A DNA stretch of 64,000 nucleotides from Escherichia coli (GCF_050920415.1 NZ_CP169309.1); one strand, 5' to 3'. Shown: positions 5,296 to 40,651, counted from the first letter of the stretch. The notes: a model not told the origin generated them from the letters alone. Numbers and translations are program-made.

Positions 5296-5523
5296 TATGT
5301 AAACATTTACACTGCTTACCTGCATGGTGCCGGGTGCCTCCCGGTGAATTCAGTATCAGCACCTGAATCCGCAATTATCCCATATACCTACTTGCTGATT
5401 GCCCCTCCGCACAGGGGGATTCACCATGCGAAATTTTTTTAACAAATGCTCAGTCTGACAGGCAACTGTCAACTGGCTGAATTGTGAGACATTTAAAATT
5501 TTCGGGGCGTAACTGATACCCGG

Positions 5524-5688
5524 TTAACTACCTGGCATGTCCTTTTTCACCAAAGGAAAAAGCACCACCACAATACCGACCACCAGCACTCCATCCGCCA
5601 GCACCGACATGATCCTGCTGGTGAAATCCACCATCACCACCAGAAACAGCAGGAGTGCCACAGCGGCCAGACGCAGTTTTACCGTCAC
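5524..5688 (-). CDS. Small hydrophobic membrane protein (54 aa), translationally coupled to TerB-like gene
   Basis: GTG start overlapping the TerB-like TGA stop (GTGA); GGAGAA RBS; product VTVKLRLAAVALLLFLVVMVDFTSRIMSVLADGVLVVGIVVVLFPLVKKDMPGS is almost wholly hydrophobic; below the ORF-track length cut-off. Confidence 0.4.
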   Translation of the reverse strand: MTVKLRLAAVALLLFLVVMVDFTSRIMSVLADGVLVVGIVVVLFPLVKKDMPGS

Positions 5689-6116
5689 AGGTGGTTCTCC
5701 AGTCGCAGGCCAAGAACACCAGCAATCTCTTCCAGAACCTTACGCTCTTCCGGCTCAATTTCACCATCTGCTTCAGCAATGGCCACCGCCACATCCAGCA
5801 CATCTTCCGCTTCACGCGTATCGTGTTTCACATCTTCAATTTCACGCAACGCTGCACGACGACCAATTTTAAAATTGGTGTCAAGCTGACCTGTGATCGT
5901 GGCACTGATGGCATTAATTTCTGACGTAAACGTGGACAACGCTGGCTGGTTACGTAATACCTGTTCGATCTTCGCTTTCTCTGAAGTCTCACATTCACCA
6001 TCTGCATAGGCCACTAGGTAGGCAGCATTAATAACCGCCTGTGCCAGATCGCGTTTCTCAAACTTTTTAATTTCAGTTGCTGCTCTGCGGGTTTTCTTTT
6101 TGAAAATACCAAACAT
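5685..6116 (-). CDS. TerB-like (tellurite-resistance TerB domain) protein
   Basis: 143 aa with paired acidic helices typical of TerB (LAQAVINAAYLVAYADGECETSEKAKIEQVL ... VLDVAVAIAEADGEIEPEERKVLEEIAGVLGL). Confidence 0.7.
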   Translation of the reverse strand: MFGIFKKKTRRAATEIKKFEKRDLAQAVINAAYLVAYADGECETSEKAKIEQVLRNQPALSTFTSEINAISATITGQLDTNFKIGRRAALREIEDVKHDTREAEDVLDVAVAIAEADGEIEPEERKVLEEIAGVLGLRLENHL

Positions 6117-6289
6117 CGTGACTTTTCCTTTTAGTGGGTGAGCCTGCGCCCTGCGGGGACCAGCCCACAGAGAAAGTCACACTGACCATCCCGTAAGCTC
6201 CCCCCTGAAAAGCTCTGTGGTTTTTGATATACGCCGGGCGTGGCGCGGATACAAAAAAGGCCCGCAAAAGCGAGCCAGGAAAATAAGTA

Positions 6290-6366
6290 TGGCGCGTTGT
6301 ACTGGATTCGAACCAGTGACCGATTGCTTAGAAGGCAATTGCTCTGTCCGACTGAGCTAACAACGC
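6290..6366 (-). tRNA. tRNA-Arg (anticodon UCU), phage-encoded
   Basis: Minus strand GCGTTGTTAGCTCAGTCGGACAGAGCAATTGCCTTCTAAGCAATCGGTCACTGGTTCGAATCCAGTACAACGCGCCA folds as a canonical cloverleaf with anticodon loop CTTCTAA. Confidence 0.85.
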
Positions 6367-6379
6367 ATGATGCAGATAA

Positions 6380-6460
6380 TGGACCGCCATCGAGGACTCG
6401 AACCCCGCACCAACAACCCTGTTATCGTGTCGTCTGCTCTTCCTGATGAGCTAATGGCGG
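6380..6460 (-). tRNA. Atypical tRNA-like gene (acceptor, D and T arms present; anticodon arm does not fold canonically; possibly degenerate)
   Basis: Minus strand CCGCCATTAGCTCATCAGGAAGAGCAGACGACACGATAACAGGGTTGTTGGTGCGGGGTTCGAGTCCTCGATGGCGGTCCA: acceptor pairing, GCTC/GAGC D stem, GTTCGAGTC T arm and CCA end, but 27 nt between D and T stems. Confidence 0.45.
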
Positions 6461-6467
6461 TACGTTA

Positions 6468-6542
6468 TGGTGGCCCTGCTGGATTTGAACCAGCGACCTG
6501 GCGATTATGAGTCGCTCACTCTCACCACTGAGCTAAAGGGCC
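6468..6542 (-). tRNA. tRNA with CAU anticodon (resembles E. coli tRNA-Ile2, lysidine type; could be Met type)
   Basis: Minus strand GGCCCTTTAGCTCAGTGGTGAGAGTGAGCGACTCATAATCGCCAGGTCGCTGGTTCAAATCCAGCAGGGCCACCA; anticodon loop CTCATAA; acceptor stem one pair short of canonical. Confidence 0.8.
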
Positions 6543-6582
6543 GGGCGCAGGATAATAACGGTACGTAACTAATTCTGCAATA

Positions 6583-7641
6583 TCATCCGTTCTGACTGAC
6601 TAAATCCTGAACTTCCTTGACCGTCTGCTCAAAACGCTCAGTCTCCAGCTCAACGCCAATTGCACGACGTCCCAGCGCCATCGATGCTTTGACCGTCGAA
6701 CCCGACCCCATGAAAAAATCTGCAACCAGATCTCCCGGACGACTGCTTGCGCTGATTATCTGCTGCAACATTTCTGCCGGTTTTTCGCACGGATGTTTCC
6801 CGGGATAGTACTGCACCGGTTTATGCATCCACACATCGGTGTACGGCACCTGCACAGTCACACCGAAATACCGCCGCAAATTTTTATATTCTCTCAGCAG
6901 TTCCGTATACTGCCGGTTCAGTTCACTGTATGTGCTGACCAGCTGGTGGTGTGGCTGCTCCAGTTCACCGCGCTGATGTTTTTCTGCTGCAACACGCGCA
7001 AACAACGCCTGCAATTTGTTGTAATCAGCTTCGTTCGGTAACTGCCACTGACTGGTACCAAACCAGTGCGAAGCCATGTTTTTCTTTCCGGTGGCTTCCG
7101 CTATCTGTTTTGACGTTATTCCCAGTTCGGCACGAGCATCCCTGAAATACGATATCAGCGGTGCCATTATGTGCTGTTTGAGTTCCCTTTCTTTTGCCGC
7201 ATAGCCGTCACTTTTGCCGCGATATGGCCCCTGGTAATGTTCAGCAAACAGAACGCGCTCTGTGGCAGGAAAATATGCGCGCAGACTTTCTTTATTACAC
7301 CCATTCCAACGTCCGGACGGCTTCGCCCAGATGATATGGTTAAGCACGTTGAAACGTTCACGCATCATGATCTCAATATCAGATGCCAGGCGATGCCCAC
7401 AGAACAGGTAAAGGCTTCCGGCAGGTTTCAACACCCGCCAGAACTGGGCCAGACAGTGGTCCAGCCACTTAAGATAATCTTCGTCCCCTTTCCACTGATT
7501 GTCCCAACCGTTGGGTTTCACCTTGAAGTAAGGCGGATCGGTAACAATCAGGTCAATGGAATCATCAGGCAGGGACTGAATAAAATGCAGGCAATCAGCG
7601 TTGATTAAATCAACACTGTTTATTTTTACAGTATTTTTCAT
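6583..7641 (-). CDS. DNA methyltransferase (N6-adenine or N4-cytosine, DPPY motif), no adjacent restriction enzyme
   Basis: 352 aa with IVTDPPYF catalytic motif and C-terminal AdoMet motif DLVADFFMGSGST. Confidence 0.85.
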   Translation of the reverse strand: MKNTVKINSVDLINADCLHFIQSLPDDSIDLIVTDPPYFKVKPNGWDNQWKGDEDYLKWLDHCLAQFWRVLKPAGSLYLFCGHRLASDIEIMMRERFNVLNHIIWAKPSGRWNGCNKESLRAYFPATERVLFAEHYQGPYRGKSDGYAAKERELKQHIMAPLISYFRDARAELGITSKQIAEATGKKNMASHWFGTSQWQLPNEADYNKLQALFARVAAEKHQRGELEQPHHQLVSTYSELNRQYTELLREYKNLRRYFGVTVQVPYTDVWMHKPVQYYPGKHPCEKPAEMLQQIISASSRPGDLVADFFMGSGSTVKASMALGRRAIGVELETERFEQTVKEVQDLVSQNG

Positions 7642-11676: not shown

Positions 11677-12072
11677 TTACCGAGTTGCTAATTTGCAACT
11701 CGCTTTTTCGTACTTACTGATAGTGATCTCGACCTTACCTTCCGGGATAACCGGTCCCCACTCCACCAGCATTCTTTTCACCTGACTGTCGTCTTCCCAC
11801 ACCCCCGCGTGGGTCAGGGCGTCAAACAGCGCCTTGTTATAGTTGTCCAGATCGCGGATCCGGTTATCCGGAGGAAACAACACGATCTCCACTGAAGCAG
11901 GTGCCGACGTTGGTTTCGGCAGACGACGTAACTGCTCAACTATTGCTGCGCACGCCGCGCTCTGGAATTTTCGCCCCGCCGCGCTTATCAGGCTCTTACC
12001 AGCAAACGCCCCTTTGTTGGGGTGTCGCCAGTACGTGTTCACGCTGGGCGGGAAAGGCAGTATTAGCTTCAT
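11677..12072 (-). CDS. rusA: Holliday junction resolvase RusA
   Basis: 131 aa with RusA signature DxDN (RIRDLDNYNKALFDALTHAGVWEDDSQV). Confidence 0.9.
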   Translation of the reverse strand: MKLILPFPPSVNTYWRHPNKGAFAGKSLISAAGRKFQSAACAAIVEQLRRLPKPTSAPASVEIVLFPPDNRIRDLDNYNKALFDALTHAGVWEDDSQVKRMLVEWGPVIPEGKVEITISKYEKASCKLATR

Positions 12073-12395
12073 ACTTTCAGGCCCCTCTCATGTAACCAGT
12101 GGGTTGCACGCAGCCTGGCGTTTTCCTCACCGGCAAGCAGTGAGCGGATAATCCCGACCGCCTCGCTGTCGTCGTCCTTCATCGCAGTATGAAGCGTTAT
12201 CCCCCGGGCCACGCCACGCTTTATCGTGATGACGCCTTTTTTCTCCAGTGCGCGAAGATGCTCCACCGCTGCATTCACTGAACGGTATCCCAGCATGGTT
12301 GCCACCTCCTGATTGGTTGGCGGGAAGCCACGTTCTTTCTGATAAGAAATCAGCATATCCAGCACCTGCTGCTGGCATTGAGTTAACGTCGTCAT
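12069..12395 (-). CDS. LexA N-terminal-like winged-helix DNA-binding protein (no peptidase domain)
   Basis: MTTLTQCQQQVLDMLISYQKERGFPPTNQEVATMLGYRSVNAAVEHLRALEKKGVITIKRGVARGITL parallels the LexA N-terminal domain; ATG overlaps the upstream gene stop (ATGA). Confidence 0.75.
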   Translation of the reverse strand: MTTLTQCQQQVLDMLISYQKERGFPPTNQEVATMLGYRSVNAAVEHLRALEKKGVITIKRGVARGITLHTAMKDDDSEAVGIIRSLLAGEENARLRATHWLHERGLKV

Positions 12396-13044
12396 GCCGC
12401 CATCTCCCTGACCAGTTTTTCCGCCTGCTGGCGAACCTGCGCCAGAAACGCCTCACCACATGCCTCAAGTTCATCGCGCCCGATGTAGCTGATTGCCGGT
12501 CCCTTCCAGGTCTGTCGAAAACAGCAATAGCACCAGCGAAGAAAGCGCCTGTCGGCACCTGCTTCTCATCTTTCGGGATAAACCAGGCAGGCAGTTCAAA
12601 ACCAATACGCCCGCGAATAAAAGCAATATGATCTGCATCTTCCGGCCACCACACTTCGCTGGTGGCAGCTTTGATCAGGAAAACATAGCGCCCGCCTTTA
12701 TCACGCATGGCACTGGCATGTTTCATGATGTAACGCATGCCGGTGATGTATTGCCCCTCATGCTGACTGGCGCGGCTGTATGGGGGATTACCAAAGGCAG
12801 CACCTTTAAGCTCCGCAAGACGTTCTGACCAGTCATGCGCCAGCGCGTTGTCTTCCGCCGTGTAATACGCGGTACATTTGGCGTTATCACCGTCAGTAAA
12901 CAGATCCAGGACAAACGGGCCAAACAGGGTGTTAATTCCCCAGAAAATGTTACCCGGCGTGCGCCACTGATCGCCCACTTCCTTCAGTTCATGGGCTGGT
13001 TTGTTCCGCAGTTCCACCAGCGCCCGGCAATATTTATTACTCAT
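12392..13044 (-). pseudogene. Phage Dam-family N6-adenine DNA methyltransferase with a 1-nt frameshift near 12505-12522
   Basis: N-terminal frame: MSNKYCRALVEL...GAAFGNPPYS...FFAGAIAVFD. C-terminal frame: QTWKGPAISYIGRDELEACGEAFLAQVRQQAEKLVREMAA, ending in TGA overlapping the next ATG. One extra A in the A4 run (about 12518-12521) would join them. The 316-aa ORF-track read-through has an Arg-rich junk tail. Confidence 0.7.
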
Positions 13045-13532
13045 TAAGCCCCCACGTAATTCCCTGACAGATACCACTCTTCACCCGATGCAGCGCGCTT
13101 GCTACTTTTCCGTAAGCACCGCTCACGACGCGCCAGAAAATTGTTTCGTTCTGGCAGGGAGTGGCTTTCACGGAATGCCGCCATCCACACGGTTGCAGCA
13201 CGACGAAATAAGCCCCTGGACTCCAGTTCTTCCGCCTGGCGGGTCAGGCACAAAATCACCCGTGGATCGTTAGTGCCGACATAGAAATTGCGCACAGGTC
13301 TGGTTTCACGAACTGGTTGTGGTTCCGGCTCCTGCGCTCTCTCAGTCAGGCGTGGGAAATGTCTGCGTGTATCTCCTTCACAACGGTGAGCCACACGCCC
13401 ACTCTGACGTAACTTGCTTGCTGACTGCAGAACGCGCTGTCGTGAGTAACCAGCAAAAGCATCCGCAATGTCTCCGGAAGTACACCCCGGATGGGCTTCA
13501 ATGAATTTCTGAACTTCATTCAAAAGACTCAT
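13044..13532 (-). CDS. Hypothetical protein with N-terminal HTH-like region
   Basis: 162-aa ORF; stop overlaps the methyltransferase start (TAATG); no family recognised. Confidence 0.6.
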   Translation of the reverse strand: MSLLNEVQKFIEAHPGCTSGDIADAFAGYSRQRVLQSASKLRQSGRVAHRCEGDTRRHFPRLTERAQEPEPQPVRETRPVRNFYVGTNDPRVILCLTRQAEELESRGLFRRAATVWMAAFRESHSLPERNNFLARRERCLRKSSKRAASGEEWYLSGNYVGA

Positions 13533-14353
13533 AATCCCCCCCTGAATCCTGCCGGGATCTGGCTGTAGTCCACGTTGTCGTAACTGGCTTTGAAGTACGG
13601 GTCCTCGCGTCTGGCTGCAGATACCGCAGGAACTTCCCAGGATTCTTCGAAATGACGATCCGGACCAAAGAACGTGACAGCCTGTTTCACAAATTGTGTG
13701 CCGCTGTTACCCATCGCAGATACCCAGCCCGCGTAGCGTTTCACACCTTCCAGCATGGTTTCGGGGTTTACTCCCTCATTCAAACGGGCTTTCCAGGCTT
13801 TGAAGGCTGCAGATTTTGAATTGCCACCAGCACGTTTGGGATATGCCAGCCATGCCTGCTCAAACTCCGGAGAGTATTCCGGTCGGTTTGAACGAACTCG
13901 CACGGACTCATCAACTGATGCACCAACAGCTATTGGTTCATTGACTGGTTCTTTGACTGGTTCAAAAGAGTGACTGGTTCTGGGTGAATCTCCTGCACTA
14001 CCCCCTGGTGCAACTCCTGCACTACCTGGTGAATTTGCTGCACCAGATAGTGAATTATTTGCACTACCCCCTAGTGAATCTCCTGCACCATCCAGATGAA
14101 GGAGATAGATATTACTTGAGTTACCTTTTTCACCTTTCCGGGTGACTTTTTTTACCAGCCCGGACTCACAAAGGGCCGCAATATGATTCATCACAGAACG
14201 TTTGCTAATCTCGCACTGGTCAGCAATATGCTGGTAGCTGGGCCAGCACTCACCCTGATCGCTGGCATTATCAGCCAGCTTGATCAGAACCAGTTTTCGC
14301 AATGGATTACCCACTCGAATTTTCATCGCTTTAACCATCAGCTCCATACTCAT
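13529..14353 (-). CDS. Replication initiation protein (HTH N-terminal domain, internal repeats, C-terminal helicase-loader-interaction-like tail)
   Basis: 274 aa; N-terminal HTH (WPSYQHIADQCEISKRSVMNHIAALCESGLVKK), central Gly/Ser/Ala/Pro repeats encoded by iterons, C-terminus ...SQIPAGFRGGL resembling the DnaT C-terminus in this window (SQIPPGFRG). Confidence 0.7.
   Translation of the reverse strand: MSMELMVKAMKIRVGNPLRKLVLIKLADNASDQGECWPSYQHIADQCEISKRSVMNHIAALCESGLVKKVTRKGEKGNSSNIYLLHLDGAGDSLGGSANNSLSGAANSPGSAGVAPGGSAGDSPRTSHSFEPVKEPVNEPIAVGASVDESVRVRSNRPEYSPEFEQAWLAYPKRAGGNSKSAAFKAWKARLNEGVNPETMLEGVKRYAGWVSAMGNSGTQFVKQAVTFFGPDRHFEESWEVPAVSAARREDPYFKASYDNVDYSQIPAGFRGGL
13940..14100. repeat. 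Iteron-like direct repeats (candidate origin of replication) inside the replication initiator gene
   Basis: GACTGGTTC three times, then about five imperfect 18-20 bp repeats of the TCCTGCACTACC(C)CCTGGTGAA type. Confidence 0.6.
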
Positions 14354-14574
14354 GCTGCACCTCCGAGATGCTTCATGTTTTTTCCGGAGCGAAAGGCTAT
14401 AAGCGGCATACTGACGCGGTAATTACGGCCCAGCGGTTCACAAATCACCTTCTGACATTCACGGTCAACCAGGCTAACACGTAGAACATGCCCTGCAGGC
14501 GTGGTGTACCACTGACCCGGTCGAGGACAACGGAAAGTCTGATTGGTAAACCGTTTGAAAATATTCCGGATCAT
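14350..14574 (-). CDS. Hypothetical small protein
   Basis: 74-aa ORF overlapping its neighbours' ends in operon; no motif recognised. Confidence 0.4.
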   Translation of the reverse strand: MIRNIFKRFTNQTFRCPRPGQWYTTPAGHVLRVSLVDRECQKVICEPLGRNYRVSMPLIAFRSGKNMKHLGGAA

Positions 14575-15722
14575 TTGCGCCCCCTTACCTCGGAAGAGTT
14601 CAGCGACGAATGAATAAGACGGGCAAGAAATGCCGCATCGTTAATTCGGTCATACAGACTTACAGCCAGCGGTGATTCAGCTTTTTCCAGCATGGGATAA
14701 AGCTGCTGCAACCAGACCTGATGAATTGATGAAATGTAGGAATAGAGTACGCTGGCGTTATGTGCAACGTCGCTCGGTACAGCGGGCTTTGAAAGCTGTT
14801 TCTCCATCTGGTTAAAGGCATTGATGTATGCCTCTTTGAACTGGGCAGCACGTTTACCCGTGAAACCCATAGCAAGAAACGCAAAACCGTCGCGGGTTAT
14901 TTGATAGCAAGGTAGTTTGCGGCCTGTGCAATCGGTGTAATCACTCACCGAAAAATTGCGGGCAGTGAATGATGCGGAGCATTCAAGCGTGCGGATCTTT
15001 TTCAGTACATCGTCATGACGTTTGGAGAAGAAGTTGGCAACAGCCAGGGATGAAGTAACAGCCTGACCATCAACGATGGCAATTTCAGGTTGAGTGAGGG
15101 TTGGGATCGTAGCCATGATGGCAGCCTCTTTGGTGATTTTTAATAACTCACCACCAAGGCTTTCCACGACCTTATTGGTGGTGAGACGTACAGGGGTGGA
15201 AATACCGGTCACCAAAGAACCCGGCCCAACCGAAGTTGGCCCTGCACGCCCCACCATAATTTGGGCGTAATGCTGCTCATGACACAAAAAAACCGCAAGA
15301 GCGCGGTTGTGCGCTTTGGTGAATTCCGGGTTTCCACGCCCGGCACCCGCTTTATAAGGTGCCTGAACAGTGTAACGTCCCGGAATGGCAGAATCAATGT
15401 GCTGGTGGTCCTTCACACTCAACAAAATCACGCCTGAATTTCCACAAAGGGCTAAAGCACTCATGCGGGTAGTCTTTGCGAAGATAGATAACGCGCTGTG
15501 TTTCTGGCTCCCAACGAATAACATGAACATAAAGTCCTCTTCCGTCACGAAACCAGCGGTTAAGTTCCTGCACAACTCGCCCCCCACAGTCAGGTAAAGT
15601 TCTCTGTGGTTACTTACAGCCAGGAGATTTGGTAATCTGCATTCATGCCGTAACAACAGGTGTTCAGCGACGCTGACCACCAGCTGTTGCGACAAATGGT
15701 TATTTGCCGTTAAACTGTTCAT
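14571..15722 (-). CDS. Rha-family phage regulatory protein with about 200-aa N-terminal extension of unknown function
   Basis: C-terminal half from MATIPTLTQPEIAIVDGQAVTSSLAVANFFSKRHDDVLKKIRTLEC... is Rha-like; N-terminal half is in the same frame with no stop; ATG at 15722 overlaps the upstream TGA (ATGA); an internal ATG at 15116 has an AAGAGG RBS. Confidence 0.7.
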   Translation of the reverse strand: MNSLTANNHLSQQLVVSVAEHLLLRHECRLPNLLAVSNHRELYLTVGGELCRNLTAGFVTEEDFMFMLFVGSQKHSALSIFAKTTRMSALALCGNSGVILLSVKDHQHIDSAIPGRYTVQAPYKAGAGRGNPEFTKAHNRALAVFLCHEQHYAQIMVGRAGPTSVGPGSLVTGISTPVRLTTNKVVESLGGELLKITKEAAIMATIPTLTQPEIAIVDGQAVTSSLAVANFFSKRHDDVLKKIRTLECSASFTARNFSVSDYTDCTGRKLPCYQITRDGFAFLAMGFTGKRAAQFKEAYINAFNQMEKQLSKPAVPSDVAHNASVLYSYISSIHQVWLQQLYPMLEKAESPLAVSLYDRINDAAFLARLIHSSLNSSEVRGRK

Positions 15723-16282
15723 GCGTTAGTTTCTCCACAGACACAAAACGCCACGACGCCCGGAGCTGCACACTCGCGGGCGTCACTCTTTTCTGGAGCG
15801 CAAAAGATTTTGTAGACCAGTGCTGCATGCTCCTGGAGCTTCGAAATTGACAGATACAACTCATCATTAATTGCTGTCTGCTCGTGTGGCTCCACTACCC
15901 CATCTTCGATTGCCGAACGAATCTGCTTTGAGTAACTCCCGATCTGTTCGATGACTTCCAGCAGGCGCTGGTTTATATCGGCGTTCTCTACTTCCTCAAT
16001 TTCAGGAAGCGATACAAACACCCCACCAGCAGACTGTGCGACAGCATCCGCAATGTAGTGAGTGCCAGCCGCGCGCTGTAAAATCATTGCCCATCCCAGC
16101 GGGAAAATCTGATCGCCATCTGCACGAAGGCGGTTGAATAAAGCGTTCTCTGTTACATCCAGCCACTCAGCAGCTTCAGCGTAACCCCCCGGCAACGCCG
16201 CGATAGTTTTTCTGACAGCTTTCACGTACCACTCAGGCTGTTTTTCTACTTTCCAGTGATGCTTACCCACGGTTAGCCTCAT
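15719..16282 (-). CDS. YdaT-like / CII-position regulatory protein (putative)
   Basis: 187 aa immediately downstream of the Cro-like gene, as ydaT follows ydaS in Rac; family call is by position and loose similarity. Confidence 0.5.
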   Translation of the reverse strand: MRLTVGKHHWKVEKQPEWYVKAVRKTIAALPGGYAEAAEWLDVTENALFNRLRADGDQIFPLGWAMILQRAAGTHYIADAVAQSAGGVFVSLPEIEEVENADINQRLLEVIEQIGSYSKQIRSAIEDGVVEPHEQTAINDELYLSISKLQEHAALVYKIFCAPEKSDARECAAPGVVAFCVCGETNA

Positions 16283-16604: not shown

Positions 16605-17279
16605 ATGAAAACAGTCCATGACATCCGGCGGTCTAACGCCAGAAAACTGAGAGATGGTGTTGGCGGGAATTCTTCCTTTGCCACCATGATTGATCGCGAA
16701 CCAACCCAGACCAGCAGGTTTATGGGAGATGGTGCTACTAAAAATATCGGTGACAGCATGGCACGGCACATCGAAAAATGTTTCGACCTGCCTGTCGGAT
16801 GGCTTGATCAAGAACACCAGACAACGAACATCACAAAAAAACCTGATGTTTCAATCACTAATAAACAAATAACGTTAGTCCCTGTCATATCATGGGTACA
16901 GGCCGGAGCATGGAAAGAAGTTGGCTATTCTGAGGTTGATTTGAGCACAACAGAAACATATCCCTGCCCTGTACCCTGTGGCGAAATGACTTATATATTG
17001 AGGGTGATTGGTGATTCAATGATTGATGAGTACCGTCCGGGGGACATGATTTTTGTCGATCCAGAAGTACCAGCCTGCCACGGCGATGACGTTATTGCAT
17101 TGATGCACGATACAGGTGAAACCACCTTCAAAAGGTTGATAGAAGACGGGACACAGCGTTATCTCAAAGCATTAAACCCCAACTGGCCTGAGCCTTACAT
17201 TAAGATAAACGGTAATTGCTCTATCATTGGTACAGTTATTTTCTCAGGAAAACCAAGAAGATACAAAATTAAAGCCTGA
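16605..17279 (+). CDS. cI: CI-type prophage repressor (HTH plus S24 peptidase/LexA-like autocleavage domain)
   Basis: 224 aa; C-terminal S24 domain with GDSM motif (YILRVIGDSMIDEYRPGDMIFVD). Confidence 0.9.
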   Translation: MKTVHDIRRSNARKLRDGVGGNSSFATMIDREPTQTSRFMGDGATKNIGDSMARHIEKCFDLPVGWLDQEHQTTNITKKPDVSITNKQITLVPVISWVQAGAWKEVGYSEVDLSTTETYPCPVPCGEMTYILRVIGDSMIDEYRPGDMIFVDPEVPACHGDDVIALMHDTGETTFKRLIEDGTQRYLKALNPNWPEPYIKINGNCSIIGTVIFSGKPRRYKIKA

Positions 17280-27617: not shown

Positions 27618-27704
27618 GCGAAGGTGGCGGAATTGGTAGACGCGCTAGCTTCAGGTGTTAGTGTCCTTACGGACGTGGGGGTTCAAGTCCCCCCCCTCGC
27701 ACCA
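27618..27704 (+). tRNA. leuQ: tRNA-Leu (CAG)
   Basis: GCGAAGGTGGCGGAATTGGTAGACGCGCTAGCTTCAGGTGTTAGTGTCCTTACGGACGTGGGGGTTCAAGTCCCCCCCCTCGCACCA; class II tRNA, anticodon CAG. Confidence 0.9.
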
Positions 27705-27732
27705 AAAACCACGTTGATATTGCTCGCACTGG

Positions 27733-27819
27733 GCGAAGGTGGCGGAATTGGTAGACGCGCTAGCTTCAGGTGTTAGTGTTCTTACGGACGTGGGGGTTCA
27801 AGTCCCCCCCCTCGCACCA
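27733..27819 (+). tRNA. leuP: tRNA-Leu (CAG)
   Basis: Second near-identical copy (one T/C difference in variable arm). Confidence 0.9.
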
Positions 27820-27853
27820 AACGAGGCGATATCAAAAAAAGTAAGATGACTGT

Positions 27854-27940
27854 GCGAAGGTGGCGGAATTGGTAGACGCGCTAGCTTCAGGTGTTAGTGT
27901 CCTTACGGACGTGGGGGTTCAAGTCCCCCCCCTCGCACCA
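27854..27940 (+). tRNA. leuV: tRNA-Leu (CAG)
   Basis: Third copy, identical to the first. Confidence 0.9.
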
Positions 27941-32494: not shown

Positions 32495-33034
32495 ATGTCT
32501 TCCAGAGTTTTGACCCCGGACGTCGTTGGTATTGACGCCCTGGTACACGATCACCAAACCGTTCTGGCAAAAGCTGAAGGCGGTGTGGTTGCCGTATTTG
32601 CTAACAATGCCCCGGCGTTTTATGCCGTCACGCCTGCGCGCCTGGCTGAACTGCTGGCGCTGGAAGAAAAGCTGGCGCGTCCAGGAAGCGATGTCGCTCT
32701 GGACGATCAACTCTATCAGGAACCGCAAGTCGCTCCCGTTGCTGTACCCATGGGGAAATTCGCCATGTATCCGGACTGGCAACCCGATGCCGACTTTATC
32801 CGCCTGGCGGCGCTATGGGGCGTGGCGCTAAGAGAGCCGGTGACCACCGAAGAACTGGCCTCATTCATTGCCTACTGGCAGGCGGAAGGTAAAGTCTTTC
32901 ACCATGTACAGTGGCAACAAAAACTGGCGCGCAGCCTGCAAATCGGTCGTGCCAGCAACGGCGGACTGCCGAAACGAGATGTGAACACGGTCAGCGAACC
33001 TGACAGCCAAATTCCACCAGGATTCAGAGGGTAA
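32495..33034 (+). CDS. dnaT: Primosomal protein DnaT
   Basis: 179 aa [30 protein letters not shown]...SQIPPGFRG. Confidence 0.9.
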
Positions 33035-33036
33035 CG

Positions 33037-33774
33037 ATGAAAAACGTTGGCGACCTGATGCAACGCCTGCAAAAAATGATGCCTGCCCATATCAAACCTG
33101 CGTTTAAAACGGGTGAAGAACTGCTGGCCTGGCAGAAAGAACAAGGGGCAATCCGCTCCGCCGCTCTCGAACGTGAAAACCGGGCGATGAAAATGCAGCG
33201 CACCTTTAACCGCTCCGGTATTCGTCCACTGCATCAGAACTGCTCCTTTGAGAACTATCGCGTTGAGTGTGAAGGGCAGATGAATGCGTTAAGCAAAGCA
33301 CGCCAGTATGTCGAAGAGTTTGACGGCAACATCGCCAGCTTCATCTTTTCTGGCAAGCCAGGAACCGGCAAAAACCATCTGGCGGCGGCAATCTGCAACG
33401 AGCTACTGCTACGCGGTAAATCCGTATTGATCATCACCGTGGCCGATATTATGTCGGCGATGAAAGATACCTTCAGGAATAGCGGTACCAGCGAAGAACA
33501 ACTGCTTAACGATCTGAGCAACGTTGATCTGCTGGTGATCGATGAGATCGGTGTGCAGACCGAATCGAAATACGAAAAAGTGATCATCAACCAGATCGTC
33601 GATCGCCGCTCTTCTTCCAAACGCCCAACCGGGATGCTGACCAACAGTAATATGGAAGAGATGACCAAGTTGCTGGGCGAACGCGTGATGGATCGTATGC
33701 GCCTGGGTAACAGTTTGTGGGTGATCTTCAACTGGGATAGCTACCGTAGCCGGGTAACGGGTAAAGAGTATTAA
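33037..33774 (+). CDS. dnaC: Replicative helicase loader DnaC
   Basis: 245 aa; Walker A GKPGTGKNHL, Walker B LLVIDEIG. Confidence 0.95.
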   Translation: MKNVGDLMQRLQKMMPAHIKPAFKTGEELLAWQKEQGAIRSAALERENRAMKMQRTFNRSGIRPLHQNCSFENYRVECEGQMNALSKARQYVEEFDGNIASFIFSGKPGTGKNHLAAAICNELLLRGKSVLIITVADIMSAMKDTFRNSGTSEEQLLNDLSNVDLLVIDEIGVQTESKYEKVIINQIVDRRSSSKRPTGMLTNSNMEEMTKLLGERVMDRMRLGNSLWVIFNWDSYRSRVTGKEY

Positions 33775-38160: not shown

Positions 38161-39075
38161 ATGAGTCGCTCACAAAATTTACGCCACAATGTGATTAACC
38201 AGGTCATTGATGATATGGCGCGGGGTCACATCCCTTCCCCACTTCCATCGCAAAGTGCGCTGGCGGAAATGTACAACATCAGCCGCACCACAGTGCGTCA
38301 TATTCTCAGCCACTTACGCGAATGCGGCGTCTTGACGCAGGTTGGAAACGACTATGTTATTGCGCGTAAACCTGACCATGATGACGGTTTCGCCTGTACT
38401 ACCGCTTCAATGAGTGAACAAAACAAAGTGTTTGAGCAGGCTTTTTTCACGATGATAAACCAGCGTCAGTTACGCCCTGGGGAAACTTTTTCTGAACTGC
38501 AACTGGCGCGGGCCGCGGGTGTCAGCCCGGTTGTAGTAAGAGAATATCTTTTAAAATTCGGCCGTTATAATCTTATTCAAAGCGAAAAGCGCGGCCAGTG
38601 GAGCATGAAGCAATTCGATCAATCCTACGCCGAGCAGCTGTTTGAGCTACGCGAAATGCTCGAAACTCATTCACTTCAGCACTTTCTCAACCTGCCTGAT
38701 CATGATCCCCGCTGGCTGCAGGCGAAAACCATGCTCGAACGTCATCGGCTACTGCGTGACAACATCGGCAATAGCTTTCGCATGTTCTCGCAACTTGACA
38801 GAGATTTTCACTCCTTACTGCTTTCAGCTGCCGACAATATCTTTTTTGATCAATCGCTTGAGATCATCTCAGTCATCTTTCATTTTCACTATCAATGGGA
38901 CGAAAGCGATCTTAAACAGCGCAATATCATTGCCGTCGATGAGCATATGACCATTCTCAGCGCTCTGATTTGCCGCAGTGACCTGGATGCCACCCTTGCG
39001 CTCCGTAACCATTTGAATTCAGCTAAACAATCAATGATTCGATCCATTAATGAGAACACGCGTTATGCTCATTAA
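38161..39075 (+). CDS. lgoR: GntR/FadR-type regulator LgoR
   Basis: 304 aa with N-terminal GntR-type HTH. Confidence 0.8.
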   Translation: MSRSQNLRHNVINQVIDDMARGHIPSPLPSQSALAEMYNISRTTVRHILSHLRECGVLTQVGNDYVIARKPDHDDGFACTTASMSEQNKVFEQAFFTMINQRQLRPGETFSELQLARAAGVSPVVVREYLLKFGRYNLIQSEKRGQWSMKQFDQSYAEQLFELREMLETHSLQHFLNLPDHDPRWLQAKTMLERHRLLRDNIGNSFRMFSQLDRDFHSLLLSAADNIFFDQSLEIISVIFHFHYQWDESDLKQRNIIAVDEHMTILSALICRSDLDATLALRNHLNSAKQSMIRSINENTRYAH

Positions 39076-39289
39076 GTACGGATTAAAAACAGCAAACTAT
39101 TAGCGGGTGCACGGTTTTATCAAAAGATAAATACCGGAAAATTCCCGCTTACCTATGCTCACAATCAGTCGACTAAAAATGTTTTTGTGAGCGGTAGTAA
39201 AGTCCTAAAACTTTTACCTGCCGTTAATGTCAACCTTGCGTAATGCACAATTACGTAAACAATTAAAATTATAAATACAGGAGTCCGGC

Positions 39290-40651
39290 GTGGAAAAAGA
39301 AAATATCACCCTCGATCCGCGTTCTTCATTTACTCCATCTTCGTCGGCAGATATTCCCGTGCCACCAGATGGATTAGTTCAACGCAGTACCCGAATTAAA
39401 CGCATTCAAACCACCGCCATGTTGTTATTATTTTTTGCGGCGGTAATCAATTATCTCGACCGCAGTTCACTGTCGGTAGCAAATTTAACGATTCGTGAAG
39501 AATTGGGATTAAGTGCCACCGAAATCGGCGCTTTGCTCTCCGTGTTTTCACTCGCTTACGGGATTGCGCAACTTCCTTGCGGCCCACTATTGGATCGTAA
39601 AGGCCCGCGCCTGATGCTGGGACTGGGGATGTTCTTCTGGTCACTGTTCCAGGCAATGTCTGGCATGGTGCACAGCTTTACGCAGTTCGTGTTGGTGCGT
39701 ATAGGTATGGGGATTGGTGAAGCGCCGATGAACCCATGCGGTGTAAAAGTCATTAACGACTGGTTCAACATCAAAGAGCGCGGACGCCCGATGGGCTTCT
39801 TCAACGCAGCTTCTACCATTGGCGTTGCCGTAAGCCCACCGATTCTGGCGGCGATGATGCTGGTGATGGGCTGGCGCGGGATGTTTATTACCATTGGTGT
39901 ACTGGGGATTTTTCTCGCCATCGGTTGGTATATGCTCTATCGCAACCGCGAGCACGTTGAACTGACTGCCGTTGAACAAGCCTATCTCAATGCCGGTAGC
40001 GTCAATGCCCGCCGTGATCCACTCAGTTTTGCTGAATGGCGCAGCCTGTTCCGTAACCGCACAATGTGGGGAATGATGCTCGGATTCAGTGGCATCAATT
40101 ACACTGCGTGGCTGTATCTGGCCTGGCTGCCAGGTTACCTGCAAACAGCCTATAACCTGGATTTAAAAAGCACCGGGTTGATGGCGGCTATCCCTTTCCT
40201 GTTTGGGGCTGCCGGGATGCTGGTCAATGGTTACGTTACCGACTGGCTGGTCAAAGGAGGAATGGCTCCGATTAAAAGCCGTAAGATCTGCATTATTGCC
40301 GGGATGTTCTGTTCTGCCGCCTTTACGCTGGTCGTACCGCAAGCGACAACATCCATGACAGCGGTTCTGCTGATTGGCATGGCACTGTTCTGTATTCACT
40401 TTGCCGGAACATCCTGCTGGGGCTTGATCCACGTCGCAGTTGCTTCTCGCATGACTGCGTCGGTGGGCAGTATCCAAAACTTTGCCAGCTTCATCTGCGC
40501 CTCTTTTGCGCCGATCATTACTGGTTTTATTGTTGATACCACCCACTCATTCCGTCTGGCGCTAATCATCTGCGGTTGCGTCACCGCGGCGGGTGCACTG
40601 GCATACATCTTCCTGGTCCGTCAGCCGATCAACGACCCACGTAAAGATTAA
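39290..40651 (+). CDS. lgoT: MFS L-galactonate transporter LgoT
   Basis: 453 aa, 12-TM MFS pattern. Confidence 0.8.
   Translation: MEKENITLDPRSSFTPSSSADIPVPPDGLVQRSTRIKRIQTTAMLLLFFAAVINYLDRSSLSVANLTIREELGLSATEIGALLSVFSLAYGIAQLPCGPLLDRKGPRLMLGLGMFFWSLFQAMSGMVHSFTQFVLVRIGMGIGEAPMNPCGVKVINDWFNIKERGRPMGFFNAASTIGVAVSPPILAAMMLVMGWRGMFITIGVLGIFLAIGWYMLYRNREHVELTAVEQAYLNAGSVNARRDPLSFAEWRSLFRNRTMWGMMLGFSGINYTAWLYLAWLPGYLQTAYNLDLKSTGLMAAIPFLFGAAGMLVNGYVTDWLVKGGMAPIKSRKICIIAGMFCSAAFTLVVPQATTSMTAVLLIGMALFCIHFAGTSCWGLIHVAVASRMTASVGSIQNFASFICASFAPIITGFIVDTTHSFRLALIICGCVTAAGALAYIFLVRQPINDPRKD

Follow-up and report, generated by a model that had tools for sequence, protein, structure and literature searches.

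A 64,000-nucleotide (nt) stretch of the chromosome of Escherichia coli GCF_050920415.1 (NZ_CP169309.1), referred to below as the window, was analyzed on one strand, with coordinates counted from its first nucleotide. It includes the early right operon of a lambdoid prophage, most of whose genes lie on the minus strand. The subject of this work is the replication initiator gene of that operon (13529–14353, minus strand, 274 amino acids) and an array of DNA repeats contained within it. The gene was assigned using the open reading frame (ORF) list, Pfam, PHROG and phage annotations. Its product matches PHROG 270, "replication initiation protein" (E = 1.7e-88, amino acids 3–271), and its N terminus matches Pfam HTH_36 (PF13730; 44.1 bits against a cut-off of 25, E = 1.8e-11). 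From N to C terminus the protein consists of a winged helix, a linker encoded by the repeats, the junction peptide RTSHSFEPV, a helical C-terminal domain and a DnaT-like tail. A confident winged-helix model was obtained for the N-terminal DNA-binding domain (amino acids 1–88; 14090..14353, minus strand), with the recognition helix at roughly amino acids 51–64 (14162–14203). This is the only winged helix of the protein, the C-terminal domain being a helical bundle. Further Pfam matches of the initiator were DnaD_N (below cut-off), B-block_TFIIIC and HTH_20; Phage_rep_O (PF04492), the family of lambda O and P22 gp18, was not among them, and a BLASTP comparison with P22 gp18 was not significant (E = 5).

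The iteron array

Five copies of a 15-base pair (bp) core, GTG(A/C)A-N5-T(G/T)CAC (GTGMA-N5-TKCAC), occupy 13984–14088, between the parts of the gene that code for the winged helix and for the C-terminal domain. The cores, or iterons, are imperfect palindromes that read GTGCA-N5-T(T/G)CAC on the gene strand, and in all five, 4–5 of the 5 outer pairs are complementary. They are spaced 24, 21, 21 and 24 bp apart, and Tandem Repeats Finder reported a period of 24 with 4.6 copies. Numbered in gene order, and with registers counted from a conserved box that follows the array, iteron 1 (GTGCAGGAGATTCAC on the gene strand; 14074..14088) lies at −105, iteron 2 (GTGCAAATAATTCAC; 14050..14064) at −81, iteron 3 (GTGCAGCAAATTCAC; 14029..14043) at −60 and iteron 4 (GTGCAGGAGTTGCAC; 14008..14022), a perfect 5/5 dyad, at −39. 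Iteron 5 (again GTGCAGGAGATTCAC; 13984..13998) lies at −15 and directly abuts the box. All of these repeats fall within ORF 13529–14353 (minus strand), where they encode GAGDSLGGSANNSLSGAANSPGSAGVAPGGSAGDSP followed by RTSHSFEPVKEPVNEP, a repetitive and flexible GxSAxxSP/L peptide that forms a disordered linker joining the two folded domains. In a relative, L200, a sixth iteron is present by way of a 21-bp duplication.

Next to the iterons, the 9-mer GACTGGTTC occurs three times within 38 bp on the plus strand (13943–13951, 13955–13963 and 13972–13980), and a degenerate fourth copy, TATTGGTTC, is found at 13931–13939. One further GACTGGTTC is present in the 64-kb window, at 39758; the chance expectation was 0.38, and no shuffled sequence reached four. 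The three copies are 12 and 17 bp apart, and as a result of the 17-bp spacing the third is read in a different frame (AGA ACC AGT C, RTS, versus GAA CCA GTC, EPV). On the other, N-terminal side of the array, the segment 14100..14131 is the least stable duplex of the gene (35% GC; nearest-neighbour dG of 30-mers −32.5 against a gene mean of −41.0, S.D. 2.6). The wing (GNSSNIYLL) is encoded here, and the segment is one of the candidates for the site of unwinding.

The initial annotation had placed three GACTGGTTC repeats and about five imperfect repeats of 18–20 bp inside the initiator gene at 13940–14100. Both sets are where it put them, with the GACTGGTTC copies starting at 13943, 13955 and 13972 and five iterons at 13984–14088, and the span is correct, the full element extending from ~13931 to 14131. 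The number of iterons stands; the unit size does not, and is better given as 15-bp dyad-symmetric cores on a 21–24-bp period.

Conservation of the iterons at the DNA level

For comparative analysis, more than 200 related phage loci were assembled. IMG/VR viral contigs were scanned with the sequence lying between the repeats and the C-terminal domain, yielding at least 120 loci with exact box matches, and a scan of a phage collection yielded 139 matching records. The hosts span several gammaproteobacterial genera, among them Escherichia, Shigella, Salmonella, Klebsiella, Vibrio, Aeromonas, Stenotrophomonas, Pectobacterium and Aggregatibacter. These loci share an architecture in which a conserved winged helix is followed by 3–7 lineage-specific repeats, a near-invariant 29-bp box and a variable C-terminal part.

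The register of the repeats was examined in 29 lineages whose arrays are <80% identical. Each has 3–7 repeats, and their positions relative to the box are fixed at −15, −39, −60/−61, −81 to −84 and −105. The 87 register-fixed 15-mers contain a mean of 3.84 dyad pairs out of 5, versus 1.29 in control 15-mers from the same genes, and four or more pairs were found in 71% of them versus 2.2% of the controls. One copy is displaced by 1 nt in 9 of the 29 lineages; it is consequently translated in another frame, with its half-sites retained. The encoded linker peptides differ completely among lineages (PMPPDGT, GVGPEST, GGAGAAP and PSENSAP), and the DNA register is unchanged. Some lineages have G5 as the iteron spacer and others its reverse complement, C5.

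The half-sites covary with residues at the start of the recognition helix. Helices reading SKRSVMNH, SERSVQNH or SRRSVINH accompany GTG(C/A)A...T(G/T)CAC, SKSAVRxH accompanies TGCC(A/G)...GGCA, GRSTVKxH accompanies GGGCA...TGCCC, DRSTVR(K/R)H accompanies TAGGC, and DKRTAMRH accompanies GTGA(T/C)...GTCAC. Among all pairs of 173 unique loci, none combined an N-terminal identity of ≥0.9 with an iteron identity of <0.7; in every comparison the N-terminal domain and its iterons moved as a unit.

Variability within the window's own lineage was calculated as the mean per site over 83 unique sequences. It was 0.0036 in the half-sites (0.0018 at third codon positions), 0.008 in the central five bases of the iterons and 0.027, ~7 times the half-site value, in the DNA between iterons. 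The N-terminal coding DNA gave 0.012 over all positions and 0.031 at third positions. The iterons are under purifying selection at the DNA level and co-evolve with the recognition helix. These sequence comparisons strongly support a view of the repeats as sites bound by the N-terminal winged helix that the same gene encodes, and the combination of dyad symmetry with a single winged helix suggests that the initiator occupies the sites as dimers.

The conserved 29-bp box

The box at 13955..13983, CCAGAACCAGTCACTCTTTTGAACCAGTC on the gene strand, encodes (P)RTSHSFEPV; its canonical form across related loci is CCAGAACCAGTCACTCTTTWGAACCAGTC. It holds two direct GAACCAGTC 9-mers, 17 bp apart and read in different frames, and is extended at 13931..13954 by 12-bp-phased GAACC units, GAACCAGTCAAT and then GAACCAATA (encoding EPVN and EPI). 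Repeat analysis of the box region returned a period of 12. The copy number of the 12-bp GAACCAGTCAAN unit differs among the close relatives L022, L115, L009 and L038, which carry EPVKEPVKEPVNEP or only EPVNEP; together with the added iteron of L200, this indicates an array that expands and contracts by unit. The box adjoins the last iteron without a spacer in all lineages compared, and it is common to lineages with unrelated iterons. From these comparisons the GACTGGTTC repeats are assigned to a box element of their own, widely conserved and distinct from the iterons.

The reading frame of the box was identical in 124 of 124 loci checked, the peptide being (P/T)RTSHS(F/L)EPVxEP. Because the box is always read in one frame, conservation of the peptide and of the DNA had to be separated, and a degenerate-codon pattern free of third positions, ACNAGYCAYTCNTTYGARCCNGT, was used to scan for the peptide. 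Canonical box DNA was found in 248 of the 251 loci recovered. Across 21 lineages with N-terminal coding DNA <85% identical, including Vibrio and Stenotrophomonas phages, third-position identity was 0.973 in seven box codons versus 0.475 at conserved residues of the N-terminal domain.

Altered forms of the box were seen in diverged relatives. The distant homologue in Psychrobacter phage Y8A has three copies of GAACCTATCAAT, and that in Pseudomonas phage MD8 has GAACC every 11–13 bp, with a PRT..EP..EP pattern persisting in the peptide. Phage mEp554 keeps AATCAGTCA and AACCAGT DNA, but in other frames (PNQSYITS) and followed by an AT-rich stretch, and the P22 origin carries GAATCAGTCA. The box also marks a boundary: BLAST similarity to many phages begins exactly there (query position 419), mosaic pairs share one side of the box and not the other, and at least eight kinds of partner gene are found downstream. 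It forms the junction for the exchange of unrelated C-terminal modules. The 45 nt after the last iteron, on the box side, are 56% A+T. No description of the box DNA or its peptide was found in the literature, and a search with GACTGGTTC alone found only unrelated primer matches.

Several other candidate signals in this region were rejected. The inverted box 10-mer CAGAACCAGT at 14285–14294 was considered as a possible flanking element or partner in long-range RNA pairing and set aside as chance; it is found only in the window's own lineage, and 41 of 54 distinct versions of the stretch have no complement of ≥6 nt. TTGACT motifs in the box raised the possibility of a promoter within the array or on its opposite strand, and no sigma-70-like site was found. 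A single terminator-like hairpin (14130–14145, plus strand) was at chance level, Rfam gave only a spurious mir-875 match far below threshold, and an antisense ORF does not account for conservation of the box, as the opposite-strand frames stop within it or just after it.

The C-terminal domain and its tail

The helical core of the C-terminal domain (amino acids ~162–228, YPKRAGGNSK...FVKQAxTFFGP; 13670..13870, minus strand) has no Pfam family and is presumed to be a partner-recruiting module. The tail, SQIPAGFRG (amino acids 264–272; 13538..13564, minus strand), is by BLASTP identical in 8 of 9 positions to the C-terminal end of E. coli DnaT (SQIPPGFRG). The initial annotation had likened the initiator's C terminus to that of DnaT and taken this as a hint that the host DnaC loader is used. 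The likeness is confined to these nine residues: the three-helix DNA-binding domain of DnaT (PF17948) was not found in the initiator, and homology of the rest of the C-terminal domain was not supported. The suggestion about DnaC gained indirect backing, in that tail type tracks loader type among relatives and that the prophage region in the window has no loader gene.

The IPxGFRG tail is also present on other homologues. Tails ending ...EGW(E/K/R)DF(L/I) and ...DDL are followed by a gene for a lambda-P-like loader (PF06992), and ...REG(S/A)L by one for a DnaB-like helicase. A core of the window's type ending ...NFNW, ...CNW or ...LTF is followed by an IstB/DnaC-like ATPase (checked against Pfam for the ...NFNW locus only), and the same core ending IPxGFRG by no loader gene, with a PerC-like gene next (~48 loci). 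Across loci L004–L262, the kind of gene that comes next, which may also be a primase-helicase or DUF968 gene, is correlated with the last 6–8 residues of the initiator. These patterns suggest that the short tails may be partner-specific docking tails.

One locus, L214 (IMGVR_UViG_2910774492_000003, 5399–6876, reverse strand of the locus), has the winged helix, iterons and box fused to a DnaT-like C-terminal half, which is homologous to DnaT 87–179 (E = 1e-7) and ends in an identical IPPGFRG. The gene directly after it encodes a protein 52% identical to E. coli DnaC (E = 5e-93). The pair matches the dnaT–dnaC arrangement and forms a phage counterpart of that operon. The host genes themselves are in the same window, ~18 kb from the prophage initiator, as judged by tblastn with the K-12 proteins: dnaT at 32495–33034 (plus strand, 99.4% identity) and dnaC at 33037–33774 (plus strand, 100% identity). 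Host DnaT and DnaC are hence candidate partners of the initiator. Apart from host dnaC, no lambda-P-, DnaC- or DnaB-like gene was found in the 64-kb window, and because the prophage region there has no loader gene, it is plausible that the prophage uses host DnaB–DnaC by way of the tail. Direct contact of DnaT with DnaB or DnaC is undocumented according to reviews (PMC5778457).

A distant homologue in Shigella phage SfII (L208 1229–2170) is 39% identical in the N-terminal domain and has at least seven repeats of the GTCAGAATCTGAC type, the box being absent. Its C terminus is the ...EDPYFKASYDNVDYSQIPAGFRG tail of the window, at 96% DNA identity; the identity of the tails despite such distant N termini indicates that the tail module moves independently.

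Prophage context

In operon order, the initiator is preceded by a cI-like repressor gene (16605–17279, plus strand), a cro-like gene, a CII/CP76-family gene (15719–16282), a Rha/Ash protein gene (14571–15722) and a small ORF. Directly after it lies a gene for a PerC-like regulator (13044–13532, minus strand), followed by Dam methylase and RusA genes. The order of Rha/Ash and then an HTH_36 protein beside cI agrees with the published Eru6 replication type of Shiga toxin (Stx) phages, in which the initiator was noted only as an HTH_36 protein (PMC8951638). The same gene with the same array, 88–100% identical, is present in Eru6-type Stx phages (e.g. Stx2a_WGPS2, AP012537), SfV, mEp460, cdtI, ST64B and Ayreon, and identical or near-identical initiator genes are also carried by Stx2c and Stx2a phages. 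The annotation given to such genes in Stx2c and Stx2a phages (Stx2a_1447 among them), Ayreon, SfV, mEp460, cdtI and ST64B is "replication protein" or "replication protein O". The 181-bp repeat region is present in 1025 of 5426 complete E. coli genomes (approximately one in five).

The 162-amino acid product of 13044–13532 has a PerC/ANR-type C-terminal region and a MarR-like N-terminal part and matches PHROG 1324, "transcriptional activator"; its gene occupies the slot held by the helicase loader in other family members. The Dam methylase ORF (12069–13077 region, minus strand) is 316 amino acids long, with the Dam domain covering only amino acids 29–196 and ~120 codons beyond it. This extension overlaps, in another frame, a 108-amino acid LexA-like ORF (12069–12395) and could reflect a lost stop codon, a frameshift or a chance open frame. 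The late-regulatory region of the prophage contains phage-type tRNA genes for Arg(tct) and Met(cat) (6290–6543, minus strand), and three tandem host tRNA-Leu(cag) genes (27618–27940, plus strand) lie between the prophage and dnaT.

Comparison with known replication origins

Three architectural features of the lambda O/P22 gene 18 class are present in the window, namely three or more intragenic repeats, dyad symmetry and co-evolution with the DNA-binding domain. As in lambda, the array sits inside the initiator gene between the DNA-binding and partner-recruiting parts, a distinct conserved segment directly follows the last repeat, and the gene belongs to the early right operon after cII. Lambda has four tandem dyad-symmetric repeats of ~18–19 bp (annotated at 39034–39118), whereas the window has five on a 21–24-bp period. 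The segment after the repeats is 76% A+T in lambda versus 56% in the window, where no lambda-type AT-rich region was found directly after the last repeat; the least stable segment is the one on the opposite side, at 14100–14131. Unlike lambda, the window has no P gene after the initiator, and its tail is DnaT-like, whereas lambda O ends ...NTDWIYGVDL. The window protein belongs to HTH_36 and lambda O to Phage_rep_O, with no detectable sequence relation between them.

P22 gene 18, with an internal rep_origin annotated at 32840–32984 (NC_002371), likewise has intragenic, phage-specific iterons, and for gene 18 of phage L an internal iteron origin has been proposed (PMC8022706). The P22 segment right after the last iteron starts GAATCAGTCAAAC, 11/13 identical to GAACCAGTCAAAG of the window box region. 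P22 gp18 differs from the window protein in belonging to the lambda O sequence family and in being followed by the phage's own DnaB-type helicase, gene 12; P22 also has a lambda-like AT-rich ACACAAAAGACA... stretch (71% A+T) that is absent from the window. Lambda and P22 share a conserved segment, ACACAAAAGACAnTATnACAAAAGA, after differing iterons, and a conserved arm beside variable iterons thus has a precedent. Escherichia phage mEp554 (L205 1560–1735), an N-terminal relative at 56% identity, has four GTGTCAGAGAGACAC iterons followed by a P22-like AATCAGTCA and an AT-rich segment (73% A+T), with no canonical box, and links the origin arm of the window family to that of P22.

Iteron plasmids offer a further comparison. 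Their initiators (RepA of pPS10, pi of R6K, RepE of F and TrfA of RK2) are winged-helix proteins acting on tandem, helically phased repeats beside an unwinding region, and, as in the window family, initiator and repeat specificity evolve together. Plasmid Rep proteins have two winged-helix domains and bind iterons as monomers. The WH1–WH2 arrangement was not found in the window protein, which has a single winged helix and dyad-symmetric sites. Plasmid iterons lie outside the gene, usually with DnaA boxes and a clear AT-rich element, whereas the window array is inside it. An intragenic iteron origin is of a known kind (lambda, P22), and its probable presence in this initiator family is undescribed in the literature found; for the Eru6-type phages, which have the same gene and array as the window, no description of iterons, box or origin was found.

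Discussion

Taken together, these comparisons make it highly probable that ~13931–14131 is the replication origin of an Eru6-type lambdoid prophage, lying within the linker-coding part of its own initiator gene. The initial annotation's view, that the initiator gene harbours an iteron-type origin in the manner of lambda O, thus has strong comparative support. If the mechanism is analogous to that of lambda O and ori-lambda, the N-terminal winged-helix domain would bind as dimers to the five 15-bp dyad-symmetric iterons, which, being 21–24 bp or approximately two helical turns apart, would present themselves on the same face of the duplex. The bound dimers would assemble into an O-some-like nucleoprotein complex, and stress from this complex would open an adjacent segment, either the GAACCAGTC-repeat box, which has the position of lambda's AT-rich region, or the wing-coding segment on the opposite side. 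The C-terminal domain and its DnaT-like IPxGFRG tail would then recruit the host DnaB–DnaC complex, a step proposed in view of the lack of any loader or helicase gene in the prophage region. Binding, oligomerization, the site of unwinding, origin firing and the contact with DnaC are all inferred from this analogy.

Some points weigh against an origin at this site. No report, experimental or descriptive, of an origin for this initiator family was found in the literature. There is no strongly AT-rich element beside the array (56% A+T versus 71–76% in lambda, P22 and mEp554), and the initiator has no detectable sequence relation to lambda O or P22 gp18, which confines the analogy to architecture. 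The prophage extends past the end of the window, and a loader gene could conceivably lie elsewhere in it. Intragenic binding sites could also serve autoregulation instead.

The origin reading was weighed against two other accounts of the iterons. An account in which the repeats merely reflect low complexity of the coding sequence, duplicating a Gly/Ser/Ala/Pro linker peptide whose DNA has no function of its own, would fit the iteron spacings of the window, which are all multiples of 3 and encode the repetitive, flexible GxSAxxSP/L, and it would fit the position of the region as a disordered linker between folded domains. A peptide, however, has no use for the dyad symmetry of each unit, and other lineages encode quite different peptides in the same DNA register. 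Half-sites are retained in off-frame copies, one GACTGGTTC copy is likewise read in another frame, and the lineage-dependent G5 and C5 spacers are reverse complements. Half-sites, third positions included, are also far less variable than neighbouring coding DNA. The check for low complexity lacking DNA-level conservation thus turned up constraint by register, dyads, off-frame copies and third positions alike, and we regard the coding-only account as scarcely credible. A second possibility is that the iterons are true initiator sites but function in autoregulation or copy control, by transcription block or DNA pairing, with the origin elsewhere. Plasmid iterons also mediate autorepression and handcuffing, and the lack of a classical AT-rich element abutting the array points the same way. 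Against this, the same placement is a proven origin in lambda and an annotated one in P22, the array and box are the only conserved non-coding-type signal in the replication module, and the box, conserved independently of iteron specificity, is hard to explain in such terms. We consider this account improbable; autoregulation and origin function are in any case not mutually exclusive.

For the box, a role in replication has, on the sequence evidence, a little less than an even chance. Its closest competitor holds that the box is a linker devoid of any replication role, kept identical by module-swapping recombination and homogenization. The start of similarity to many phages exactly at the box (query position 419), the eight or more downstream partner types and the mosaic pairs that are alike on one side only are all expected of such a junction, and homogenization would likewise yield near-perfect synonymous identity. 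It would not predict the altered versions in diverged relatives (Y8A, MD8, mEp554 and the P22 origin), and it is also at odds with the internal structure of direct 9-mers in two frames and a 12-bp-phased GAACC series, and with the box always abutting the last iteron without a spacer. On balance we hold the recombination account to be rather unlikely. A functional element would itself be conserved and so be usable for recombination; the origin-element and linker readings can both hold. Alternatively, the conserved entity might be the peptide (P/T)RTSHS(F/L)EPVxEP, docking a host protein, with DNA identity a secondary outcome of codon or translation effects. The peptide is indeed conserved, its frame is the same in 124 loci, and PRT..EP..EP persists in so distant a homologue as MD8. 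The seven box codons are nonetheless 97.3% identical at free third positions versus 47.5% at other conserved residues in the 21 lineages, and mEp554 keeps AATCAGTCA and AACCAGT DNA in other frames. A peptide-only explanation accordingly has little probability, although the peptide may matter in addition to the DNA.

Two linked readings of wider scope, that the box is a new kind of origin element and that the C-terminal tails form a docking code for loaders, are offered jointly and tentatively, since we would sooner expect the pair to fail than to hold. If the former is true, the box would be a non-AT-rich, in-frame element common to hundreds of phages whatever their iteron specificity or helicase-loading route, and would be a strand-opening or helicase-entry site or would bind a conserved factor or the initiator on single-stranded DNA. 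If the latter is true, EGWxDF(L/I) would specify lambda-P-like loaders, REG(S/A)L DnaB-like helicases and IPxGFRG DnaC; the DnaT tail would be the long-sought contact that hands DnaB–DnaC to the restart primosome, and dnaT–dnaC would descend from a phage module of this sort. The tail-loader correlation makes the question of contact between DnaT and DnaB–DnaC a simple binding question.

In the box, constraint of synonymous sites by a DNA signal is seen with unusual clarity, and it extends across genera. The initiator family as a whole is a natural specificity series, with dozens of helix/half-site pairs on one scaffold, that would be useful for building orthogonal origins. The array is part of the replication module of Stx2c and some Stx2a phages, and studies of Stx phages have connected toxin output with replication type (PMC8044961, PMC8951638). 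With the origin and its specificity determinants known, replication incompatibility and cross-activation among co-resident prophages could be predicted. The origin would also be a defined target for origin-sensing defence systems, of which Lamassu senses lambda iterons (PMC12663957).

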